Source: an uncultured Candidatus Saccharibacteria bacterium (GTDB taxonomy: Bacteria > Patescibacteriota > Minisyncoccia > Phycocordibacterales > Zambryskibacteraceae). From it: 64,000 bases of DNA. This document shows, piece by piece, positions 4,016 through 64,000 of this stretch; within the stretch, counting starts at the first letter, position 1, and the number at the start of each line of letters is the position of its first letter. A program made the position numbers and the translations under genes. Location: the NCBI GenBank assembly GCA_964504255.1, contig CAZDDU010000001.1, positions 33,843 to 97,842 of the forward strand, in the 5' to 3' direction. The notes beneath the pieces are model-generated. The model did no database searches, had not been told where the DNA came from, and saw only the letters and a list, made by a program, of their open reading frames with translations.

Positions 4016-5992
4016 CTAGAAGTCTATCTTGTATAAAATGTCTCTCCGAGTGTCTCGCCTGGGTACCGAGCCTTCGTTCCACACCTCTTCTTCGGTAAGC
4101 TCCTCTGGTATATCGAAGATGAATTCTGACGGGAGGTTCGTCTCTCTCTGGCCAAACACTGTTCTAACCTGAGCATTGGTTAAATAGAGCTTCTTCCTAG
4201 CTCTGGTGACTGCAACATAAAAGAGTCTCCTCTCCTCTTCTCTCTCCTCGGCGGTGATGTTCTCTCTAGTGATCTTGTTGTGGGGGAAGAGTCCGTCTTC
4301 GAGTCCCGAGATGAAGACGACGTTGAACTCGAGTCCCTTAGATGCGTGAATGGTCATAAGCCTGACTCCACTCTTATTTTCTTTTTCATTTTTCTTCCTG
4401 TCTAAATCATCCTGGTCACTTTGGAGTGCAGCGTCCTTGAGGAAATTCTCTATACCCTCGCCTTGCGGCAGGTGGTCATAGCGAGAGGCGAAGGCCACTA
4501 GCTCGAAGGCGTTCTCTAGTCTATCTTGGTCCTCGTCTCTACCTCCACGCCACTCGGCTTCTAGTCCTGTGCACTTAATAATGTGATTTATCACCTCGCT
4601 CGGCCTCAGCTCATTAGCCTTCTCCCCTATGTCGACGAGCAACTTTCTAAAGTCAGCTATCTTCACTCTTGTGCCTGCTGGCAGAGTGGTCTCGTCTCCG
4701 GTAAATATCTTTACCACTGTAGTCTTGCCGATACCTCGAGTAGGAGTGTTGATGATCCTCTTCACATCGGCAAGTGCGCCGGGGTTAAGTCCGGCCCTGA
4801 GATAAGAGATGATGTCCTTCACCTCGCGCCTCTCGAAGAAGCGTGTGCCGAGTAGTTGGTATGGTACTTGGTGTCGGAGAAATGCTTCTTCGAGAACTCT
4901 TGATTGGAAGTTTGCCCTATAAAGTACTGCAATCTCTTCGGTATTTTCTCCACTAGCAATCAAACTCTTAGCCTTTGTAGCGATGAACTCAGCTTCAGAG
5001 ATCTCGTCGAAGGTTGAAAGTAAACTTATCTTCTCCCCTGTCTCACTCTGGGTGAAAAGATTTTTCTCCACTCTGATCTTATTCTTTTTGATGATGGTGT
5101 TAGCCGCTTCTAGAATAGTTTTGGTAGAACGATAGTTCTCCTCGAGAAGAATTATTTTTGTCTCTGGATAGTCCTTCTCGAACTTCAAAATGTTTTGGAT
5201 GTCTGCTCCTCGCCAAGAATAGATGTTTTGGTCTATGTCACCCACCACAGTGATGTTCTTCTCCTCGCTTGTTAAGAGCTTAGCGATCTCGTACTGTACT
5301 TTGTTGGTGTCCTGATACTCGTCTATATGGATATACTTCCACACATGTCGATAATGGTCTCTAACCTTCGGGTTACCACGAAGTAGGCGCACGGTCTTTA
5401 AGAGTAGGTCGTCGAAGTCGAGTGCACTGTCGCGCCTGAGGATCTTCTCGTACTCACCCCATACCGACTTAACTGTAGAGGTGAAGTGACCTCCCTCTTC
5501 GTGTGACATGTATTCTTCGGATGTGGTGTCGCGTCCCTTCTCCTTCGAGATGATGGAGAGGATACGGTCTGGTTCGTGGGTCTTGGGGTCGAAGCCGGTA
5601 TTAACCAAAGCTTCTTTGATAGCTCTTTTCGCATCGTCCTTGTCGAAGATGGTGAAGTGTCTAGAAATGCCTAGAGCTTGGCTATTTTCCTTCAATATAT
5701 GTACCCCAAGGGAGTGGAAGGTGGATACAAAGGGTTTCTCGGTCATTGTGACTGGGCGACTGAGTTCTTTGTCTTCAAGGAGCATCTTCTCTACCCTCTC
5801 TCGCATCTCTTTGGCAGCCTTGTTGGTGAAGGTAATGGCCAAAATGGATGATGGAGCCACTCCGTGCTTCACCAAATTCCGTATTCTCTCGGCGATTGTC
5901 TTGGTTTTGCCCGCCCCGGCACCTGCGAGTATAAGAAGGGGCCCCTCTAGGGTATCCACCGCCTGCTGTTGTCGTTCGTTTAGAGTTGCCAT
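4016..5992 (-). CDS. uvrD: ATP-dependent DNA helicase UvrD/PcrA family
   Basis: MATLNERQQQAV...LAGAGAGKTKT Walker A, IHIDEYQDTN, UvrD motifs; start taken at internal Met15 of track ORF. Confidence 0.9.
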   Translation of the reverse strand: MATLNERQQQAVDTLEGPLLILAGAGAGKTKTIAERIRNLVKHGVAPSSILAITFTNKAAKEMRERVEKMLLEDKELSRPVTMTEKPFVSTFHSLGVHILKENSQALGISRHFTIFDKDDAKRAIKEALVNTGFDPKTHEPDRILSIISKEKGRDTTSEEYMSHEEGGHFTSTVKSVWGEYEKILRRDSALDFDDLLLKTVRLLRGNPKVRDHYRHVWKYIHIDEYQDTNKVQYEIAKLLTSEEKNITVVGDIDQNIYSWRGADIQNILKFEKDYPETKIILLEENYRSTKTILEAANTIIKKNKIRVEKNLFTQSETGEKISLLSTFDEISEAEFIATKAKSLIASGENTEEIAVLYRANFQSRVLEEAFLRHQVPYQLLGTRFFERREVKDIISYLRAGLNPGALADVKRIINTPTRGIGKTTVVKIFTGDETTLPAGTRVKIADFRKLLVDIGEKANELRPSEVINHIIKCTGLEAEWRGGRDEDQDRLENAFELVAFASRYDHLPQGEGIENFLKDAALQSDQDDLDRKKNEKENKSGVRLMTIHASKGLEFNVVFISGLEDGLFPHNKITRENITAEEREEERRLFYVAVTRARKKLYLTNAQVRTVFGQRETNLPSEFIFDIPEELTEEEVWNEGSVPRRDTRRDILYKIDF

Positions 5993-14095: not shown

Positions 14096-14125
14096 TTGAC
14101 AAAGTGGGTACAGTATGTATATAAT
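14096..14125 (+). promoter_or_regulatory. sigma70-type promoter upstream of nusA
   Basis: TTGACA - 18 nt - TATAAT. Confidence 0.6.
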
Positions 14126-14187: not shown

Positions 14188-15324
14188 ATGTTCGATCTTA
14201 AAGTCATCAACAGTGTGCTGGGCGAGCTAGAAGAAGTGCGCGGCATTCCTCGTGCCAAAATCATCGAGGCTATCGAAGCGGCTCTAGCTACGGCTTATAA
14301 GAAGGAGTACGGTAAGCGTGGTCAACTTATCCGCGCGGCTTTCGACATGAAGACCGGTCAGGTTGAGTTCATGCAAGTGAAGAATGTTGTTGATGATACT
14401 AAGGTCTTCTTCGACGAAGATGCAGAACTAGCGGACGGAGACGAAAGAGTTTTCTACAACCCAGAACAGCACATGCTCTTAGATGATGCGAAGAAGATGA
14501 AGCGTGATGCCAAGGTCGATGATGAGATCATCTTCCCTATCGAGTCTAAGGGTGACTACGGTCGCATTGCTGCTCAGACTGCCAAGCAAGTTATTATGCA
14601 GAAGATTCGTGAAGCAGAAAAAGTTTCTGTTTTAGGTGAGTTCGGCGCACGCGAAGGCGAGATCGTCTCTGGTACAGTGCAGAGAATCGAGAGAGGAAAT
14701 ATTTTCGTCGACATGGGTCGCGCTACTGGTCTCCTCGCATATGAAGAGCAGATCCCTGGCGAGCGCTTCTCACAAGGTGAGAGAGTAAGAGCATATCTAT
14801 ATAGAGTAGAAGAGTCTCCAAGAGGTGTCTTCCTCCGTCTTTCTCGCTCTCATCCAAAATTCCTAGAAAAGCTTTTTGAGGCTGAGGCTCCAGAGCTTGC
14901 GAATGGTGCAGTGGTTATCAAGTCTGTCGCACGCGAAGCGGGTTATAGATCTAAGATAGCGGCTCAAGCTCTCGACTCACACATCGATCCTGTTGGTGCA
15001 CTAGTTGGTCAGCGTGGAGTAAGAGTGTCTACAGTGATGTCGGAACTCAGAGGCGAGAAGATCGATGTCATCGAGTGGCAAGAAGAGCCAAAGAAGTTTA
15101 TCGAAGAGGCTCTCTCCCCTGCGAAGATCATGAAGATCGAAATGGATGAAGAGACAAAGACTGCAACAGTACATGTTGCTGAGTCAGAGCAGTCACTCGC
15201 TATTGGTAAGGGTGGACAAAATGTTCGCCTTGCGGCCAAGCTCACTGGATTCAAAATTGATATTCAATCTGCTAAGGGTGAGGAGCTTGCAACAGGAGAA
15301 GCATCAGAGGATAATAAAGAGTAA
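14188..15324 (+). CDS. nusA: transcription termination/antitermination factor NusA (no C-terminal AR repeats)
   Basis: MFDLKVINSVLGELEEVRGIPRAK N-terminus, S1 and KH domains. Confidence 0.95.
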   Translation: MFDLKVINSVLGELEEVRGIPRAKIIEAIEAALATAYKKEYGKRGQLIRAAFDMKTGQVEFMQVKNVVDDTKVFFDEDAELADGDERVFYNPEQHMLLDDAKKMKRDAKVDDEIIFPIESKGDYGRIAAQTAKQVIMQKIREAEKVSVLGEFGAREGEIVSGTVQRIERGNIFVDMGRATGLLAYEEQIPGERFSQGERVRAYLYRVEESPRGVFLRLSRSHPKFLEKLFEAEAPELANGAVVIKSVAREAGYRSKIAAQALDSHIDPVGALVGQRGVRVSTVMSELRGEKIDVIEWQEEPKKFIEEALSPAKIMKIEMDEETKTATVHVAESEQSLAIGKGGQNVRLAAKLTGFKIDIQSAKGEELATGEASEDNKE

Positions 15325-22149: not shown

Positions 22150-22177
22150 GGTTTACACTGAGTTTGTTGAAGTGTGC
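22150..22177. repeat. 28-bp direct repeat copy 1 (GGTTTACACTGAGTTTGTTGAAGTGTGC), 3' trailer of tRNA-Arg
   Basis: Identical 28-mer also at 22270-22297; 12-nt core TTTACACTGAG also at about 20633. Confidence 0.8.
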
Positions 22178-22246
22178 CCCCAGCAGGAATCGAACCCACA
22201 TCCCTTGTTCCGAAGACAAGTACTCTATCCGTTGAGCTATGGGGGC
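22175..22246 (-). tRNA. tRNA-Arg (anticodon TCG)
   Basis: Hand-folded cloverleaf: GCCCCCA acceptor, anticodon loop CTTCGGA, TTCGATT T-loop. Confidence 0.8.
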
Positions 22247-22269
22247 AGTATTAGTATTCTATCAGGTTT

Positions 22270-22297
22270 GGTTTACACTGAGTTTGTTGAAGTGTGC
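22270..22297. repeat. 28-bp direct repeat copy 2, 3' trailer of tRNA-Gly(GCC)
   Basis: Identical to 22150-22177. Confidence 0.8.
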
Positions 22298-22365
22298 GGC
22301 CAGGGAGAATCGAACTCCCATCTCATCCTTGGCAAGGACGTGTTCTACCACTAAACCATGGCCGC
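22295..22365 (-). tRNA. tRNA-Gly (anticodon GCC)
   Basis: GCGGCCA acceptor, anticodon loop TTGCCAA, GTTCGATTC T-arm. Confidence 0.8.
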
Positions 22366-22419
22366 AAGTATGATGATATTAGCCTAAAAGTGCTATAAAT
22401 GCTAGAGTAAATCTCTCCA

Positions 22420-22490
22420 CGGAGTGTAATACAGCGGTAGTATACACGATTCGGGTTCGTGAGACCCGGGTTCGATTCCCGGCACTCCGA
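22420..22490 (+). tRNA. tRNA-Pro (anticodon CGG)
   Basis: CGGAGTG/CACTCCG acceptor, anticodon stem CACGA/TCGTG, loop TTCGGGT. Confidence 0.8.
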
Positions 22491-22512
22491 AAGTGTATAA
22501 TCTAACCGAGCA

Positions 22513-22583
22513 CGGACTGTAGTATAACGGTAGTATACATCCATGGGGTGGATGCGGCCCGGGTTCAATTCCCGGCAGTCCGA
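22513..22583 (+). tRNA. tRNA-Pro (anticodon GGG)
   Basis: CGGACTG/CAGTCCG acceptor, anticodon stem CATCC/GGATG, loop ATGGGGT. Confidence 0.75.
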
Positions 22584-22606
22584 CAAGTTTTGGTTGGTGG
22601 TTCAGT

Positions 22607-22679
22607 CGGGGCGTGGTGTAACGGCTAACATGTCTGTTTTGGGTACAGATGACTCCGGGTTCGAATCCCGGCGCCCCGA
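22607..22679 (+). tRNA. tRNA-Pro (anticodon TGG)
   Basis: CGGGGCG/CGCCCCG acceptor, anticodon stem TCTGT/ACAGA, loop TTTGGGT. Confidence 0.8.
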
Positions 22680-22732
22680 CTGAGGCTCTAACTAGTTCAA
22701 ATAGGCCTCTAAATAAGGATATTTCAAATAAA

Positions 22733-22806
22733 GCGGGATTAGTTTAATGGTAGAATAAGAGTTTTCCAAACTTTAGGTGGGAGTTCGATTCTCCCATCCC
22801 GCACCA
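22733..22806 (+). tRNA. tRNA-Gly (anticodon TCC), CCA encoded
   Basis: GCGGGAT/ATCCCGC acceptor, anticodon loop TTTCCAA, genomic ACCA end. Confidence 0.85.
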
Positions 22807-55887: not shown

Positions 55888-56376
55888 ATGGCAATTAATA
55901 AACAAAAGAAAGGAGAGATCATAGATAAGCTCTCGAAGGCTGTCAAGGATGCAAAGTCCTTGGTCTTCGTGAACTTCCATGGACTCAAGGTATCCGACAC
56001 TACCAACCTCAGGCGCGAGCTTAGGAAGGAGGGTGTGGAGTACCAAGTATCTAAGAAGACTCTCACCAAGCGCGTACTCGATTCCGAGAAGTTTGAGGGC
56101 ACAATGCCCGAACTCGAGGGCGAGCTCGCTATGGCATGGAGTGAGGATCTCATCGCACCTGCACGAGGTGTACACACTTTCGCTAAGAAATTTCCAGAGG
56201 CTCTAAAGATCCTTGGAGGAGTCTTCGAAGGTAGGTATATGAGTAAGGCAGAGATGATGGAGATCGCTACCATACCTCCAGTTGAGGTACTTAGAGGTAA
56301 GTTTGTAAACATTATTAACTCACCAATCCAGCGCTTCGCAATAGCTCTTGGAGAGGTAGCAAAGAAGAAAAATTAA
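55888..56376 (+). CDS. rplJ: 50S ribosomal protein L10
   Basis: [45 protein letters not shown]. Confidence 0.9.
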
Positions 56377-56377
56377 A

Positions 56378-56737
56378 ATGACAAAAGAACAAATCATCGA
56401 GGCAGTTGAGAAGTTGTCAGTCCTCGAACTCAACACACTCGTAAAGGCAATTGAGGAGAAGTGGGGAGTATCAGCTACAGCGGTTGCTGCCGCTGGTCCT
56501 GCCGCTGGTCCTGCTGAGGAGGCTAAGAGTACAGCCGATGTAGAACTTACTGACGGCGGTGCAAACAAGATTGCAGTCATCAAGGTCGTGAAGGAAGTAC
56601 TAGGACTTGGTCTCAAGGAGGCTAAGGACATGGTAGACGGTGCTCCAGCAATGCTTAAGGCCGGTATGAAGAAGGAGGACGCCGACGCTCTTAAGAAGAA
56701 GATCGAGGAGGCTGGTGGAAAGGTTACTCTTAAGTAA
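56378..56737 (+). CDS. rplL: 50S ribosomal protein L7/L12
   Basis: [31 protein letters not shown]...[22 protein letters not shown]. Confidence 0.95.
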
Positions 56738-56763
56738 GTTTTCTCCAAAAGTTTCTCATCACA

Positions 56764-56790
56764 AAACTCCCCGAAAGGGGAGTTTTGTTC
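56764..56790 (+). terminator. intrinsic terminator after rplL
   Basis: AAACTCCCCgaaaGGGGAGTTT followed by TGTTC. Confidence 0.7.
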
Positions 56791-56831
56791 ATACTAGCGC
56801 TTTCGGGGGAGTGGGAGTAAAATACGCCCAC

Positions 56832-57404
56832 ATGGGGAAATCAATTTCACACTTATTTGGGAGTGAAGCGAAGGTCAAGATCATGCGTCTCTTTGTCTTC
56901 AACAAAGGATCAATATTTACTGCGAAGACTATTAGCGAGAGAGTGCAGGCAAGTGCCAAGGTGGTGAGGAAGGAGCTCACTAGTCTTATCAAGGCTGGTC
57001 TTGTATATAAGAGAGCAAGGGGTTATGTCCTTAATGCTGAGTATGACTATCTTAAGGCGGTAGAACGATTCTTGATCGAGGCCACACCAATCTCGGAGAA
57101 GGAGATCATAAGGAAGCTCTCTAAGGCGGGTAGTATGCGACTCATCCTTACTTCCGGCGTCTTCAAGCAGGACTCTGAGGCTAGAGTAGATCTACTTGTG
57201 GTGGGGGATAAGATCAAGGAGAGCACTCTTCTTCGCGCTATTAGCTCTCTTGAGGCAGATTTGGGCAAGGAGCTCCGCTTTGCGGCCTTTGAGACTCCTG
57301 ATTTCAAGTACCGCCTAGGTATATATGACAAACTTGTTCGCGACATCTTAGACTATCCACACAGGAAATTGGTCGATAAGGTCGGTCTCCAACCTAAGGT
57401 ATAA
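56832..57404 (+). CDS. winged-helix domain protein, function unknown
   Basis: TISERVQASAKVVRKELTSLIKAGLV wHTH-like N-terminus; start at Met40 of track ORF. Confidence 0.5.
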   Translation: MGKSISHLFGSEAKVKIMRLFVFNKGSIFTAKTISERVQASAKVVRKELTSLIKAGLVYKRARGYVLNAEYDYLKAVERFLIEATPISEKEIIRKLSKAGSMRLILTSGVFKQDSEARVDLLVVGDKIKESTLLRAISSLEADLGKELRFAAFETPDFKYRLGIYDKLVRDILDYPHRKLVDKVGLQPKV

Positions 57405-57455
57405 TATTTAGAAGCCCGCAAGGGCATTACTAGATAAACTGTACAGTAAGGATTT

Positions 57456-58148
57456 ATGTATATCAGCAACTGGGGAAACGTGCTTACGCTCTCGTTCCAG
57501 AATCTCTGGATGGGTATCGTTAGTTTCGTCCCGAACCTTGTCGTCGCGCTTATCATCGTCATTCTCGGATGGCTCGTTGGCGCATTGCTCGGCCGGGCAA
57601 TTTGGCAAGTGTTCCGCTCTTTGAAGGTTGACGAAGCACTTCGTCGCGCAGGATTCGAAGGATTCCTCCGCCGTGGTGGTGTTGATCTTGACTCGGGCGC
57701 GTTTATTGGCGGTCTTGTAAAGTGGTTTGTAGTAGTTGTTTTCTTGGTAGCGGCCTTCGACGTTCTCGGCCTTACTCAGGTTAACCTCTTCCTACAGCAG
57801 GTTGTTATAGCTTACCTTCCTCGCGTTATCGTAGCCGCTTTGGTCATCCTCGTTGGAGGTGTCATCGGCGACGTAGTCGAGAGAGTTGTAGTTACAGCAG
57901 CTCGTACTGCAGAGATTCGCTCAGCACACTTCGCTGGAGCAGTGTCTAAGTGGGCGGTTTGGGTCTTCGCTATATTGGTAGCGCTTTCTCAACTCGGCAT
58001 CGCAACGGCTTTCAGCCAGACACTCTTCACCGGTATCGTTATCGCTATCTCACTAGCACTTGGTCTCTCCTTTGGTCTTGGTGGCCAGGAGGCAGCAGCT
58101 CGATTCATCGAGAGGCTCCGAGGCGACATGGGTGGCAAGCACAACTAA
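57456..58148 (+). CDS. membrane protein with duplicated conserved-TM-helix repeats (MscS-N-terminal-like)
   Basis: Two repeats of amphipathic-helix + TM segments; elevated GC (about 54%). Confidence 0.5.
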   Translation: MYISNWGNVLTLSFQNLWMGIVSFVPNLVVALIIVILGWLVGALLGRAIWQVFRSLKVDEALRRAGFEGFLRRGGVDLDSGAFIGGLVKWFVVVVFLVAAFDVLGLTQVNLFLQQVVIAYLPRVIVAALVILVGGVIGDVVERVVVTAARTAEIRSAHFAGAVSKWAVWVFAILVALSQLGIATAFSQTLFTGIVIAISLALGLSFGLGGQEAAARFIERLRGDMGGKHN

Positions 58149-58184
58149 TCAGGGTATTTCGCTAGATAATACCTAGATAACAAA

Positions 58185-58209
58185 AAGAGGCTCTAAACAG
58201 CCTCTTTTT
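58185..58209 (+). terminator. intrinsic terminator
   Basis: AAGAGGCTctaaacAGCCTCTT followed by TTTTG. Confidence 0.7.
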
Positions 58210-58225
58210 GCTACTTATAAATTGC

Positions 58226-58254
58226 TTGACAAGTAGGGCGAAGTATGCTAAGGT
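58226..58254 (+). promoter_or_regulatory. sigma70-like promoter of GC-rich cassette gene A
   Basis: TTGACA - 17 nt - TAAGGT; AGGAGG SD 7 nt before the ATG at 58316. Confidence 0.5.
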
Positions 58255-58315
58255 TAATACAGTAGTTTCCCGTTCCTTCAGCAGCAAAGGCACCCAACTT
58301 CTAGGAGGCAGTCGT

Positions 58316-58951
58316 ATGACCAAGCCCGCCAAGCAGTCGAAGCCCCAGTCCACGCGCTTCTCGCTCGACCACGATGGGCTCACCGAGTTCCTCGTAGCGT
58401 TCCAGATCATCTGGGCCGCGGTGCGGGCGCTCTACAAGGGTCCCCACGGCGAGAACGACCAGACGCGGAACTTCGTCCGACGCATGGAGCAGATGGTCCG
58501 GCACGCCAGCCCTCTCCTCGAGGACGGCGAGACCGACCACAACTCCTACGAGAAGACGATCAAGCTCGGCGCGGCGCTCATGCGCCAGATCGAGGAGTAC
58601 ATCGACGACATCCTCGATTCCGACCGCGCGAGGGAGTTCTTCGACCGCGCTTCGAGCGAGATCCAGGAGATCTGGCCCGAGGTCTGGGCGGCGAAGAAGA
58701 ACGAGATCCTCGAGAGCCGTGCCCGCTTCCAGCAGGCGAACGCCTCGGAGACCGCGGAGGACCTCAAGAAGATCGTCCTCGCATACAACGCGACGACCGA
58801 GCTCCTTGCCAGGGCCAAGGCCGAGGCCGAGAACAAGGCGTCTGCCGAAGCCAACCGTCTCCGTCAGGCGAAGGAGGCTCAGGAGAAGCTCGCCCGGTTC
58901 GAGAAGAACCGCACGCGCGGCCGCTCTGTCCTGGCCCAGCTCTCGGCCTGA
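58316..58951 (+). CDS. hypothetical protein A, very GC-rich (about 65%), coiled-coil C-half; C-terminal tail RTRGRSVLAQLSA
   Basis: Diverse amino-acid composition on + strand versus L/R/G-rich antisense ORF; SD AGGAGG. Confidence 0.6.
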   Translation: MTKPAKQSKPQSTRFSLDHDGLTEFLVAFQIIWAAVRALYKGPHGENDQTRNFVRRMEQMVRHASPLLEDGETDHNSYEKTIKLGAALMRQIEEYIDDILDSDRAREFFDRASSEIQEIWPEVWAAKKNEILESRARFQQANASETAEDLKKIVLAYNATTELLARAKAEAENKASAEANRLRQAKEAQEKLARFEKNRTRGRSVLAQLSA

Positions 58952-58992
58952 ACTGCACAACGCACGCTAACGCGTGCCCGCCCCACGAAAGT

Positions 58993-59019
58993 CCCCACGG
59001 ACAATCGTGGGGCTTTCTT
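58993..59019 (+). terminator. intrinsic terminator after gene A
   Basis: CCCCACGgacaatCGTGGGG followed by CTTTCTT; second hairpin GCACGCtaaGCGTGC just upstream. Confidence 0.6.
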
Positions 59020-59028
59020 ATTCATACA

Positions 59029-59057
59029 TTGACATTACTGCTATATTGTGATAATAT
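59029..59057 (+). promoter_or_regulatory. consensus sigma70 promoter of GC-rich cassette gene B
   Basis: TTGACA - 17 nt - TAATAT. Confidence 0.6.
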
Positions 59058-59118
59058 TAAATTAGATAAGCATTGTCTTAGCTGTACTTGAACAACTTAC
59101 CCTATTCCGGAGTTCTTG

Positions 59119-59700
59119 ATGAACCAGAAGAAGGCTGTTTCCGAACGAGCCCTGGGCTCTGTCCCGGTGGTCATGTTCTTCCTCAACGTGAACGGCGAGC
59201 ACCTCGTCCCCGACTCGGCGACGAAGGTTCCCGACAACCAGACGGCAGGGAAGTCACACACCGGTAAGCCCGGTATCATGCTCTGCCAAGGCAAGTCGGT
59301 GGATCTCGAGGGAGCACTCAAGGAGATCGAGCTCCGAGGGTACCTCCCCAAGAAGTTCACCTCCATCCATCGGTTCCAAGGAATCATGCATCGCATGGTG
59401 CTCGTCTGCGTTCACAAGGACGCGCCCGACAACGGCGAGGCGGCGAGCTTCACCGCCGAGCAGAGGGAGGATTTCCTCAAGCTGCTTCAGGGCTACAACT
59501 GGGACACCACCGTCTACCGGAATTTCTCCGAGACGGGAGGTAACTTCATCCTCATGGCCGGCAACCCCGATCGCCGGGAGGAGAAGGAGATCCTTCGGGT
59601 GAACGACGCGAACGAGTTCGAGATGGTGGATGCGGAGAAGGTCAAGACCGACCAGTCTCGGACGCGTGGTCGGGAAGCCCTCTCGCAGATCAGCGCGTAG
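59119..59700 (+). CDS. hypothetical protein B, GC-rich; C-terminal tail RTRGREALSQISA
   Basis: 193 aa; GGAG SD; shares a 12-aa C-terminal motif with gene A. Confidence 0.6.
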   Translation: MNQKKAVSERALGSVPVVMFFLNVNGEHLVPDSATKVPDNQTAGKSHTGKPGIMLCQGKSVDLEGALKEIELRGYLPKKFTSIHRFQGIMHRMVLVCVHKDAPDNGEAASFTAEQREDFLKLLQGYNWDTTVYRNFSETGGNFILMAGNPDRREEKEILRVNDANEFEMVDAEKVKTDQSRTRGREALSQISA

Positions 59701-59729
59701 GATCAGTTGGTGAGCCCTTCCTCGGGCTA

Positions 59730-59754
59730 GGCCGTCACATTGTGACGGCCTTTT
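59730..59754 (+). terminator. intrinsic terminator after gene B
   Basis: GGCCGTCACattGTGACGGCC followed by TTTTAC. Confidence 0.7.
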
Positions 59755-59776
59755 ACTTATCTATTGTTGCCCTCGT

Positions 59777-59805
59777 TTGACAATAGAGCCCCATTTCTAT
59801 ACTAT
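59777..59805 (+). promoter_or_regulatory. sigma70-like promoter upstream of rpsS
   Basis: TTGACA - 17 nt - TACTAT. Confidence 0.5.
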
Positions 59806-59864
59806 ATTTGCCTACGTCCCGCATGCGGGATTAAGTTTTAAATAGTTCGAATACCTAACTTAAA

Positions 59865-60209
59865 GTGACCAGATCAAGCAAAAAAGGACCATATGTAGAC
59901 CCTCGCGTGATGAAGAAGATCGAGGGCAAGAAGCCAGGCGAAACCGGGGTTATTAAGACCTGGTCTCGCGCATGCCAAATCGCTCCAGAGATGATCGGAT
60001 TCACCTTCGGAGTGCACAACGGTCGCGACCATGTCGAGGTCTTCGTCACAGAGGACATGATCGGTCACAGACTAGGTGAGTTCTCACTCACTCGTAAGTT
60101 CGTGAAGCACGGTGGTAAGATGCAGAAGGATATTGAGTCTAAGGCTAAGGAGGCCGAGATCAACGCAGCTAAGGCAGCTAAGGCTTCTACCGACACTAAG
60201 AAGAAATAA
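59865..60209 (+). CDS. rpsS: 30S ribosomal protein S19 (GTG start, Lys/Ala-rich C-terminal extension)
   Basis: [15 protein letters not shown]...GHRLGEF. Confidence 0.9.
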
Positions 60210-61275: not shown

Positions 61276-61698
61276 ATGCTTTTCCCTAAGAAAGTTAAAT
61301 ACCGAAAGTGGCACACCATGAGGAAGAACCCTCTAAAGGTGGGCCCAGCTACCCGCGGTATTACCGTTGCTTTCGGTTCATACGGTCTTAAGGCTATGGA
61401 TCAAGTTCGTATCAAGTCGAATCAAATCGAAGCCGCAAGAAAGGTGCTCTCAAGAGCGCTTGGTAAGACTGGTAGACTTTGGATTCGCATTTTCCCTGAT
61501 ATGCCTTATACTGCGAAGCCTGCAGAGGTTAAGCTAGGTAAGGGTAAGGGAGACCTACAGGGTTATGTGGCTCCAGTTAGAGCGGGCCGAATGCTTTTTG
61601 AGGTAGATGGAGTGTCTGAGGCTATTGCCAAGGAGGCTCTAAGGAAGGCGGGTACCAAGCTCCCTGTGAAGACTAAGATCGTCGCTCGCGAACAATAA
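61276..61698 (+). CDS. rplP: 50S ribosomal protein L16
   Basis: MLFPKKVKYRKWHTMR... Confidence 0.95.
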   Translation: MLFPKKVKYRKWHTMRKNPLKVGPATRGITVAFGSYGLKAMDQVRIKSNQIEAARKVLSRALGKTGRLWIRIFPDMPYTAKPAEVKLGKGKGDLQGYVAPVRAGRMLFEVDGVSEAIAKEALRKAGTKLPVKTKIVAREQ

Positions 61699-61699
61699 T

Positions 61700-61942
61700 A
61701 TGAATACAAAGACAAACAAGAAAAAGGTTTTCACCGGTACAGTCGTCTCAACAAAGATGAAGGACACTGTCGTTGTGCTTGTCGAGAGATATGAGAAGCA
61801 TCCAAAGTACGAGAAGTTTATGAAGTCTTCAAAGAAGTTCAAGGCTCATGATGCGGGTAACACTGCCAAGGTAGGGGATAAGGTGTCTATCACTGAGACC
61901 AAGCCAATTTCTAAGGATAAGCATTTCATTTTAACCAAGTAA
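61700..61942 (+). CDS. rpsQ: 30S ribosomal protein S17 (directly after L16; no L29 gene between)
   Basis: FTGTVVSTKMKDTVVVLVER...HDAGNTAKVGDKVSITETKPISKDKHF. Confidence 0.9.
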   Translation: MNTKTNKKKVFTGTVVSTKMKDTVVVLVERYEKHPKYEKFMKSSKKFKAHDAGNTAKVGDKVSITETKPISKDKHFILTK

Positions 61943-63139: not shown

Positions 63140-63166
63140 TAATAGCGCGAAGGCGCTATTTTGTTT
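63140..63166 (+). terminator. intrinsic terminator after rplE
   Basis: AATAGCGCgaagGCGCTATT followed by TTGTTTG. Confidence 0.7.
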
Positions 63167-63191
63167 GAAGACCCACATCTCAGGAGACGCT

Positions 63192-63377
63192 ATGAGCGAG
63201 AAGAAGAAGCCACCAGTACCGCTGAACGAGATCGTGCTCACGCCAGAAGAGCGACAATTCCTCACGCCCGAGTTTGTCGAAGAGACGACTATGGGCGCTA
63301 TCAGGTATGTTGAGGAGAGGCTCTCCGTCACAGAGTCACCAGAGTTCAGTGCGTCGAGAACCAAGCCAGCAAAGTAA
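63192..63377 (+). CDS. small hypothetical protein (61 aa) with SD
   Basis: CAGGAGAcgctATG; followed by hairpin GCCAGCaaagtaaGCTGGC + TTTTT at 63365-63388. Confidence 0.45.
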   Translation: MSEKKKPPVPLNEIVLTPEERQFLTPEFVEETTMGAIRYVEERLSVTESPEFSASRTKPAK

Positions 63378-63415
63378 GCTGGCTTTTTCATATAAAACGA
63401 CATAAATTTGAGTAC

Positions 63416-63443
63416 TTGACAATAGTTGTGAAGTGTGTATAAT
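63416..63443 (+). promoter_or_regulatory. perfect-consensus sigma70 promoter
   Basis: TTGACA - 16 nt - TATAAT. Confidence 0.65.
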
Positions 63444-63447
63444 ATAA

Positions 63448-63873
63448 ATGTACGGTGAGAGTCTGGCAGAAGCCGGGCACTGCCGTATGAAGTACAAGAT
63501 TCATTTCCTTACACCGGTGACGGAATGGTTCTGCTCTCGAGACAGAGTGCGAATGGTTCCCGATGGCGATGAAGCCGGTATCTCCCTGCAGTCGCGTATG
63601 CTCGGAAGAGGCGCGATCAAGTTAATTTGGTAAAGTGGTAACCTGATCTTCGCTGCCCTACGGCCGCGCGAACTACCGAGAGAGGCGGTTTCCTCTCCAG
63701 GTTATCTCGTAGGGATAGAAAGTCGGGGCGTTCTAGACGCCTAAAGGAGATCCGAGTGATGTCTCGCAATACTCACTCCCTCTGTAAGTCCGACAACTAC
63801 TCTCTGCGATTCTCGCACAATGTGGCCTCGGCCACTCACAATACAGCGCTCACCTTCGGGTAGAGCGCTTTTT
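63448..63873 (+). ncRNA. candidate about 430-nt structured transcript of unknown identity; contains only a 61-codon leaderless ORF (63448-63633)
   Basis: Consensus promoter ends 5 nt before 63448; GC-rich, hairpin-dense; ends in intrinsic terminator AGCGCTCaccttcgggtaGAGCGCT + TTTTC (63845-63873); expected rpsN/rpsH/rplF genes are absent here. Confidence 0.35.
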
Positions 63874-63881
63874 CAATTTAT

Positions 63882-63905
63882 AAAAAACCCACGCACGCGC
63901 GTGGG
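63882..63905 (-). terminator. intrinsic terminator of the convergent minus-strand gene
   Basis: Minus strand reads AGCCCCACGCgcgtGCGTGGG followed by UUUUUUA. Confidence 0.65.
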
Positions 63906-63907
63906 GC

Positions 63908-64000
63908 TAATAGATACTCGTCACATTACAACGACTCTGAAGATCCTCTGGGGTGACGTGCCTGCTTGCGGCAATCTCATCTTGGATCTGTCGTATGCCA
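63908..64000 (-). CDS. 3' end of an unidentified minus-strand gene that enters from beyond the window
   Basis: Open frame ...GIRQIQDEIAASRHVTPEDLQSRCNVTSIY*; stop codon at 63908-63910. Confidence 0.4.

Follow-up and report, generated by a model that had tools for sequence, protein, structure and literature searches.

The 64,000-nucleotide (nt) stretch of DNA that we analyzed (hereafter the window; assembly GCA_964504255.1, contig CAZDDU010000001.1, positions 33,843 to 97,842) comes from an uncultured Candidatus Saccharibacteria bacterium. Close to its 3' end, the plus strand carries rplE, the last gene of the spc operon before an insertion, followed by an intrinsic terminator, a gene for an acidic protein of 61 amino acids (aa), a promoter of perfect consensus, and a structured segment of about 0.4 kb that closes with a terminator of its own; on the minus strand, a convergent gene for an 80-aa protein runs off the window. 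All positions given below are those of the window. Our analysis indicates that the interval 63450-63873 of the plus strand is probably a stand-alone gene for a structured non-coding RNA (ncRNA) of approximately 424 nt, belonging to a family that is not in Rfam. An earlier reading made from the letters of the window (hereafter the sequence-only reading) had described an independent unit running from promoter to terminator, and both its coordinates and its description proved correct. Among the identities which that reading had considered, a novel small RNA is the candidate that survives, as no Rfam family matches the transcript and its helices are kept by compensatory changes.

The promoter, of the sigma-70 type, occupies 63416-63443 of the plus strand and consists of TTGACA (63416-63421), a 16-nt spacer, and TATAAT (63438-63443), so that all 12 hexamer positions match the consensus, as the sequence-only reading had proposed. 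Two perfect TTGACA-N15-18-TATAAT sites exist in the 64-kb window, whereas 0.03 would be expected by chance. The 28 nt of the promoter, spacer included, are unchanged in every lineage in which we found the RNA, with the exception of one base in the contig L092 (contigs carrying relatives of this locus are designated here by L numbers). Immediately upstream of the -35 hexamer, an A+T-rich stretch (63386-63415, plus strand), which may be an UP element, is kept alongside the promoter; its 30 nt hardly differ in L092, L093, and L091, including where another gene lies upstream. Transcription is predicted to start near G63450 and to end in the U-run of an intrinsic terminator at 63845-63873 (plus strand), formed by AGCGCUCACC-UUCG-GGUAGAGCGCU and followed by UUUUU. 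This hairpin has ten pairs, a UUCG loop, and a U-run of five; it is present in every fold and 93-100% identical across all lineages. A simple terminator scan missed it because the stem is bulged. Nine bases further on lies the terminator of the convergent 80-aa gene (63882-63905, minus strand; stem 63905-63888 and T-run to 63882), whose stop codon lies at 63907-63909. Both terminators agree with what the sequence-only reading had described, and so does the composition of the transcript, which it had called GC-rich and structured: the G+C content is 54%, compared with 46% for the window. Judging from these elements, the promoter and the conserved A+T-rich stretch should drive strong transcription, which is probably constitutive, and the RNA is apparently strongly expressed. 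As a separate observation, the 16-nt spacer ATAGTTGTGAAGTGTG is as invariant as the hexamers, at a distance where synonymous sites of the lineages are 36-42% diverged, which hints at an additional constraint, for example a regulator site or the geometry of the promoter. The other perfect promoter of the window, TTGACA-N18-TATAAT at 14096-14125 (plus strand), lies about 60 nt 5' of a 378-aa open reading frame (ORF) at 14188-15324.

The sequence-only reading had suggested looking for compensatory changes in homologous regions of relatives, and these were found. A consensus fold computed with RNAalifold on seven distinct sequences contains 106 pairs in 16 helices, with 99.2% of the alignment cells holding standard pairs; when the 3' partners were slid by 1-3 columns as a control, 40-48% were paired. 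Ten of the 106 pairs have changed on both sides, compared with 0-2 in the slid controls, and none of 500 column shuffles reached the observed covariation score; as the lineages are few and the structure was scored on the alignment from which it was derived, these covariation statistics are indicative rather than conclusive. The compensatory pairs lie on the transcribed strand. The consensus folding energy is -119 kcal/mol on the plus strand and -88 kcal/mol on the minus strand, and this difference of 31 kcal/mol, together with 17 G-U pairs, fixes the functional strand. When sequences were folded singly, the transcript of the window was more stable than 100 of 100 dinucleotide shuffles (z = -3.2), and the other z-scores were -5.7 and -3.4.

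The fold comprises a 5' hairpin, a short linker hairpin, a multi-branched body closed by a long-range helix, a GUGGC/GCCAC hairpin, and the terminator, all on the plus strand. The 5' hairpin (helix 1; nt 1-39 of the RNA, 63450-63488) has 16 pairs and an AGAA/UGAA loop and is 90-100% identical in all lineages; its pair 17-24 shows a compensatory change from G-C to A-U in L112. An alternative to helix 1 exists in which nt 1-10 pair with a 3' CUCACAAUAC strand, and because both of these segments are invariant, the two pairings are indistinguishable. The body is closed by GUGA (63517-63520), which pairs with UCAC (63836-63839); a C-to-U variant in L002 still pairs as G-U, and GGUGA is likewise present after helix 1 in L092. 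Within the body, helix 3 (63522-63560) is a hairpin of 15 pairs whose pair 83-100 is U-G, U-A, or G-C, and helix 4 (63574-63589) is a short hairpin that is invariant among close lineages. Helix 5 (63591-63617) is capped by a GNRA tetraloop, which is GGAA, GCAA, or GAAA depending on the lineage; its stem is re-written in L108 with pairing retained, and the whole helix is absent from L092. A variable central domain follows (the helix 6 region, 63637-63706), which is 46-50% identical to L091 and L108 with 22 gap columns and is replaced in L092. The helix 7 domain (63708-63808) is a long irregular arm of about 100 nt with 32 pairs, in which 100% of the cells are paired; five of these pairs show compensatory changes, though identity to L091 is only 59-68%. 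One of its sub-hairpins has an invariant UUCUAG loop (63730-63736) that contains the palindrome CUAG, and a second hairpin includes a conserved CUCACUCC strand that is kept even in L092. Helix 8 (63822-63835) is a GUGGC-NNNN-GCCAC hairpin whose stem is invariant in all lineages, L092 included, and whose loop is CUCG, CUAG, or UACA. The alignment and the consensus fold then place the 3' strand of the closing helix, UCAC, and a conserved AAUAC tail at 63836-63844, next to the terminator.

Conservation was measured against the neutral rate of the same genomes. Between the window and the L091 species, identity is 64% at the four-fold degenerate sites in 11 flanking genes and 79% at third positions of rplE, whereas it reaches 94% over the promoter and nt 1-141 of the RNA (binomial P ~1e-8, even against the 79%). 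The 3' 61 nt of the RNA are 90% identical to L092, compared with 58% at rplE third positions (P ~4e-8). The segment between them, nt 142-360, is 46-68% identical and roughly neutral in sequence, with helix 7 still paired. By these rates, selection acts on the promoter, on both ends of the RNA (its first 140 and last 60 nt), and, through base pairing, on the helix-7 arm and its shape, whereas the center can drift or be replaced.

The RNA was found in five diverged forms, all from one narrow clade of Parcubacteria/Paceibacteria; several of the contigs were reached through homologues of the two flanking small proteins. The organism of the window is itself placed among the Patescibacteria, as a Parcubacteria/Paceibacteria type, by the nearest relatives of its L5. 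The form present in the window is shared by L001-L010, L094, L102, and L111 (98-100% identity to the window); the remaining forms are those of L093 (91%), of L091 and L112 (79%), of L108, L109, and L110 (77%), and of L092 (58%), where the RNA is 324 nt long and most of its middle is replaced. The other natural variants measure 402-424 nt. In all contigs of sufficient length, its place is between rplE and rpsN or rpsH. These data indicate an RNA family that is real, though narrow and restricted to its clade.

The rplE gene (encoding L5; 62569-63117, plus strand) was taken from the ORF list and has Pfam matches to Ribosomal_L5 and L5_C on an identical product; the exact L5 protein is present on 17 contigs. 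Downstream of it, a terminator at 63141-63167 (plus strand), with an 8-bp stem (63141-63160) and a T-run, is conserved in L091, L092, and L002. The sequence-only reading had held that the rest of the spc operon was missing after rplE, which turned out not to be the case: in the same-species contigs that reach far enough (L001-L003 and L010), rpsN comes after the RNA unit and the 80-aa gene, and behind it stand rpsH, rplF, rplR, rpsE, rplO, secY, adk, and map, so that the operon resumes about 0.4 kb past the end of the window. The spc operon is intact and is merely interrupted, at an insertion hot spot, by approximately 1.9 kb between rplE and rpsN. The rpsN gene encodes a zinc-type S14 of 61 aa, which was read from the DNA of L002 at 5331-5516. 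Although it is present in the DNA of L001, L002, L003, and L010, it is absent from most of these contigs' gene calls, and some of them carry an over-long rpsH call in its place; a gene table would therefore wrongly imply that S14 is absent. The rplE-rpsN gap is a hot spot of gene gain and loss. Strains of the same species differ in it by a 222-aa ORF, and relatives carry as cargo either a ClpX-zinc-finger ORF or a membrane protein resembling PnuC (PF04973, below cutoff). In the next-closest genomes the gap holds quite different cargo, made up of unrelated small gene sets, and no such RNA; in the outgroup L012 it holds three minus-strand ORFs and no analogous RNA. The gap being a tolerated insertion site in these genomes, it can account for the presence of the RNA gene there, and its position can be understood without any functional tie to the ribosome.

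It is important to note that several observations weigh against a functional ncRNA gene of these limits. Besides the derivation of the consensus structure from the same alignment that was used for the pair counts, only about five independent lineages are available, all of them in one narrow clade. The central third of the RNA evolves at a near-neutral rate and has for the most part been replaced in L092; much of the molecule may accordingly be dispensable. No homologue of the RNA appeared at 80 other Paceibacteria rplE loci in searches by single-sequence nhmmer, by profile nhmmer, and with a covariance model of nt 1-141. A scan of JGI metagenomes with one exact-match pattern of the 5' hairpin returned only six chance matches in G+C-rich coding genes, two exact-match patterns (5' and 3') gave nothing or chance matches in IMG/VR, and blastn of the RNA against phage and plasmid collections found no match. 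Both boundaries, 63450 and 63873, are predictions from the promoter and the terminator. Finally, a role in scaffolding or assembly is putative. Within the window itself, the nhmmer and covariance-model searches found no further copy of the RNA.

Some of these points would also be expected if the segment were a decaying remnant, either a pseudogene or the end of a mobile element, that has kept its promoter and terminator and looks conserved through closeness of the lineages only. The gain and loss of genes in the gap, the near-neutral divergence and replacement of the center, and the very narrow distribution all favor this explanation. Two features of the RNA make it unlikely. First, the level of conservation: the promoter, the 5' third, and the 3' end have changed far less than synonymous sites have. 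Second, the preservation of pairing: the fast-evolving helix-7 arm keeps every changed pair paired. In addition, the segment shows no similarity to proteins in any frame and no terminal repeats, and it has no match in the phage, plasmid, and IMG/VR searches. A degraded gene had also been among the candidates of the sequence-only reading, and it is disfavored by the same compensatory changes and by six-frame translations of the RNA region, which match no Pfam family.

Two small acidic, clade-specific proteins flank the RNA and are conserved at 68-99% identity. The upstream 61-aa gene (63192-63377, plus strand), a neighbor that is not part of the RNA, is preceded by an AGGAG Shine-Dalgarno (SD) sequence at 63182-63186 and has same-locus homologues at 72-87% identity; the terminator scan placed its own terminator at 63363-63390 (plus strand; stem 63363-63385). 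On the other side, the convergent 80-aa protein is predicted to be all-helical, and its gene occupies 63907-64000 of the minus strand, where the window ends; its AlphaFold model is of low confidence (pLDDT 57), too poor for a fold search. Neither protein has a match in Pfam, PHROG, PADLOC, or PDB, and the same searches with the small ORFs and the neighboring genes gave only a weak PnuC-like match and a ClpX zinc finger in the cargo genes of relatives. We considered whether the RNA might belong to an accessory module with one or both of these proteins, for example an RNA-protein toxin-antitoxin, defense, or regulatory system. The RNA and the 80-aa gene occur together in all contigs that extend far enough, most contigs also have the 61-aa gene beside the RNA, and the locus is a variable hot spot, as would suit such a module. 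Shared ancestry accounts for this co-occurrence equally well, as the lineages are closely related and it was these proteins that led to them; moreover, L093 has the RNA without the adjoining 61-aa gene, and in L092 a further gene separates the RNA from the 80-aa gene. As the database searches revealed no defense, toxin, or mobile-element signatures and the RNA contains no repeats, we regard a module of this kind as improbable.

The stand-alone ncRNA was compared with known RNA families. All models of Rfam 15 were run against the window at gathering thresholds and, at E ≤ 10, against the 901 nt between 63100 and 64000 and against the loci of L092, L093, and L112. At gathering scores the whole window contains only six tRNAs, which lie elsewhere; at E ≤ 10, nothing was found within 63448-63845 and nothing consistent in the three homologous loci, the matches being chance ones on terminators. 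ARAGORN detected neither a tRNA nor a transfer-messenger RNA (tmRNA) at the RNA locus. The absence of RNase P RNA and tmRNA motifs noted in the sequence-only reading, which had also proposed an Infernal/Rfam search, is borne out by these results. For RNase P RNA (RF00010/RF00011), no model matches and the P4 strands GGAAAGUCC / ACAGAA are not among the invariant positions; the sole look-alike, GAAAGUCGGGGC, belongs to a covarying hairpin and has become GGAGUUUCGGC in L091. tmRNA (RF00023 and permuted forms) was rejected in view of the negative ARAGORN and Rfam searches, a 3' hairpin loop of 4 nt, and the lack of a CCA-proximal acceptor. Signal recognition particle (SRP) RNA (RF00169/RF01854) has no Rfam match here, and the GNRA-capped helix 5 lacks its loop motifs, besides being re-written in L108 and absent from L092. 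6S RNA (RF00013), whose rod of about 180 nt opens into a large central bubble, also has no match, and the present fold is multi-branched and spans 325-425 nt. No covariance model of OLE, ROOL, GOLLD, raiA, or HEARO matches inside the RNA. A cis-regulatory leader or riboswitch is contradicted by the transcript ending at its own terminator, with the next gene convergent. Guide or scaffold RNAs (the omega RNA of IscB/TnpB, bridge RNA, and retron msr-msd) were discarded as well: no IscB, TnpB, IS110 recombinase, or reverse transcriptase is encoded nearby and HEARO does not match, the neighbors being rplE, the 61-aa and 80-aa proteins, rpsN, and, in some lineages, the PnuC-like or ClpX-zinc-finger ORF. 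A repeat search found no arrays in the RNA, which is therefore not CRISPR-, TIGR-, or ToxI-like, and the literature on known ncRNAs of Patescibacteria yielded nothing relevant.

A related explanation is that the RNA is one of the clade's housekeeping RNAs (RNase P RNA, tmRNA, SRP RNA, or 6S RNA), so divergent that standard models miss it. Typical features of such RNAs are present, namely a size of 325-425 nt, a very strong promoter, and a middle that varies between conserved ends, and none of the four was found elsewhere in the 64-kb window, a weak argument given that the window is a small part of the genome. Against it stand the negative searches at E ≤ 10 in the 901 nt and in three homologues, the negative ARAGORN result, the variable P4 look-alike in a covarying helix, the lack of a 7-nt T-loop arm, of a CCA-proximal acceptor, and of a tag frame, and a GGAA-capped helix 5 that lacks the SRP symmetric-loop motif and is missing from L092. 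The RNA is also absent from the 80 related rplE loci, which says little in this respect because housekeeping RNA genes can lie anywhere in a genome. Taken together, we consider a divergent housekeeping RNA very unlikely.

The transcript was also examined for coding potential, since the sequence-only reading had placed the transcription start at an ATG and spoken of a leaderless message or a dual-function RNA. The ATG at 63448-63450, at about the predicted start, does open a 61-aa ORF (63448-63633). A search of 5.8 billion proteins yielded no homologue of its product outside the product's own cluster, and neither Pfam nor PHROG has a family that it matches. L093 and L092 have AGG in place of the ATG, and a deletion of 1 nt (GGCGAU to GGGAU) puts L093, L091, L112, and L108 out of frame at codon 27-28 counted from a conserved internal AUG; in L092, a stop follows eight codons after this AUG, the sole one conserved. 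Reading the alignment of the window with L093 directly, all the differences in the shared part of the ORF are non-synonymous, and most are multi-base, which is the opposite of purifying selection on a protein. A second candidate, with AAGGAG 6-9 nt before GUG/AUG at 63756/63759, stops after nine codons in L091. On the strand of the RNA, a 113-aa ORF is present in L091 and L108, and beyond the shared nucleotides the products of the lineages are unrelated. The 61-aa ORF is, on this comparison, not a gene, and neither a leaderless nor a dual-function message agrees with a start codon and a frame that are not conserved. The remark of the sequence-only reading that most of the transcript is non-coding is supported, and no Pfam family was found in any of the six frames. 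A small-protein mRNA, whether read from the ATG or from the SD-preceded start, appears excluded as far as the comparative data allow, and we give it hardly any probability at all.

Other parts of the window also depart from the usual organization of ribosomal-protein genes. At 61276-61942, rpsQ (S17) starts 2 nt past the stop codon of rplP (L16), with no rpmC (L29) in its normal place between them. At 55888-60209, rpsS is not preceded by rplB; upstream of it lie rplJ-rplL, identified by Pfam matches on the homologous genes of L001, and then four ORFs, one of them resembling a mechanosensitive (MS) channel. From this layout it follows that the S10 and spc clusters carry several insertions. The segment 58208-59700 has 60-67% G+C, compared with 46% in the window, and contains two ORFs, of 247 and of 194 aa, for which no Pfam match is on record and which end in similar tails, TRGRSVLAQLSA and TRGREALSQISA. 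Far from this region, six tRNA genes on both strands lie within 630 bp at 22175-22803.

Returning to the structured ncRNA, a mechanism may be outlined. The perfect promoter and the A+T-rich stretch would drive an autonomous unit whose transcript would end at the hairpin and U-run, and the product would consist of the 5' hairpin and a multi-branched body closed by the long-range GUGA/UCAC helix beside the conserved 3' hairpin. Such an RNA might be an abundant scaffold that acts in trans. The invariant elements, namely the 5' hairpin and the 3' hairpin with its tail, the three strands of CUCAC type, and the CUCACUCC strand, are candidates for a surface that contacts protein or RNA; of these, the two hairpins and the CUCAC-type strands may be where a protein partner binds, and the variable center could serve as a structural spacer. 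Alternatively, the invariant CUAG loop and the GNRA loop could let copies of the RNA bind one another.

Large bacterial ncRNAs offer the closest comparison. Like OLE, ROOL, GOLLD, the raiA motif, and HEARO, this RNA appears to be an independently transcribed, multi-helix molecule of several hundred nucleotides without coding capacity, is enriched in G+C relative to the genome, and has GNRA and other conserved loops as well as helices supported by compensatory changes. Palindromic loops of OLE and GOLLD form self-kissing bridges between RNA copies, and self-assembly has been shown for OLE, ROOL, and GOLLD, with bridging elements of the CUAG-loop/GNRA kind (PMC12286853). The invariant loop with its CUAG palindrome resembles those of OLE and GOLLD, which makes oligomerization a candidate property by analogy and the CUAG and GNRA loops a lead as copy-bridging elements. 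Unlike OLE, ROOL, and GOLLD, this RNA is smaller; unlike all five families, which are widespread, it is confined to one small Paceibacteria clade and matches no Rfam model. It also lacks their neighborhoods, namely IscB for HEARO, an OapA-type protein for OLE, and a prophage for ROOL and GOLLD. Protein-binding RNAs such as 6S RNA, CsrB/RsmZ, and Y RNA share with it a promoter (here a strong one) and a terminator of their own, conserved ends that close a structured body, and short repeated motifs, of which the three CUCAC strands could be protein sites. It is, however, twice the size of 6S RNA without the central-bubble rod, has only four GGA motifs and is therefore not CsrB-like, and contains no Ro or tRNA-like module. 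With tmRNA and RNase P RNA it has in common a similar length, conserved 5' and 3' parts, and a variable, helix-rich middle, and it differs from them in having neither the tRNA-like domain and tag frame of the former nor the P4 core of the latter.

A more far-reaching proposal, to which we assign a low probability and which we offer tentatively, is that this RNA is the first representative of a new class of large structured RNAs peculiar to a lineage of ultra-small, host-dependent Patescibacteria: a very highly made scaffold, either self-assembling or forming a ribonucleoprotein with its small acidic neighbors, in which the conserved ends would be the core and the center a spacer. The narrow distribution limits its general importance. 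Large structured bacterial RNAs of unknown function are rare, and they have repeatedly yielded ribozymes, RNA-protein machines, and RNA nanocages. As this RNA is short, with clear boundaries and natural variants of 324 nt and 402-424 nt, it would be easy to synthesize and test. The genomes of Patescibacteria are tiny and contain hardly any non-coding DNA, and a conserved non-coding gene of 0.4 kb with a perfect promoter is therefore unlikely to be idle in such a genome. The finding would add a previously uncatalogued structured RNA gene, located inside the ribosomal-protein gene cluster of a small Paceibacteria clade.

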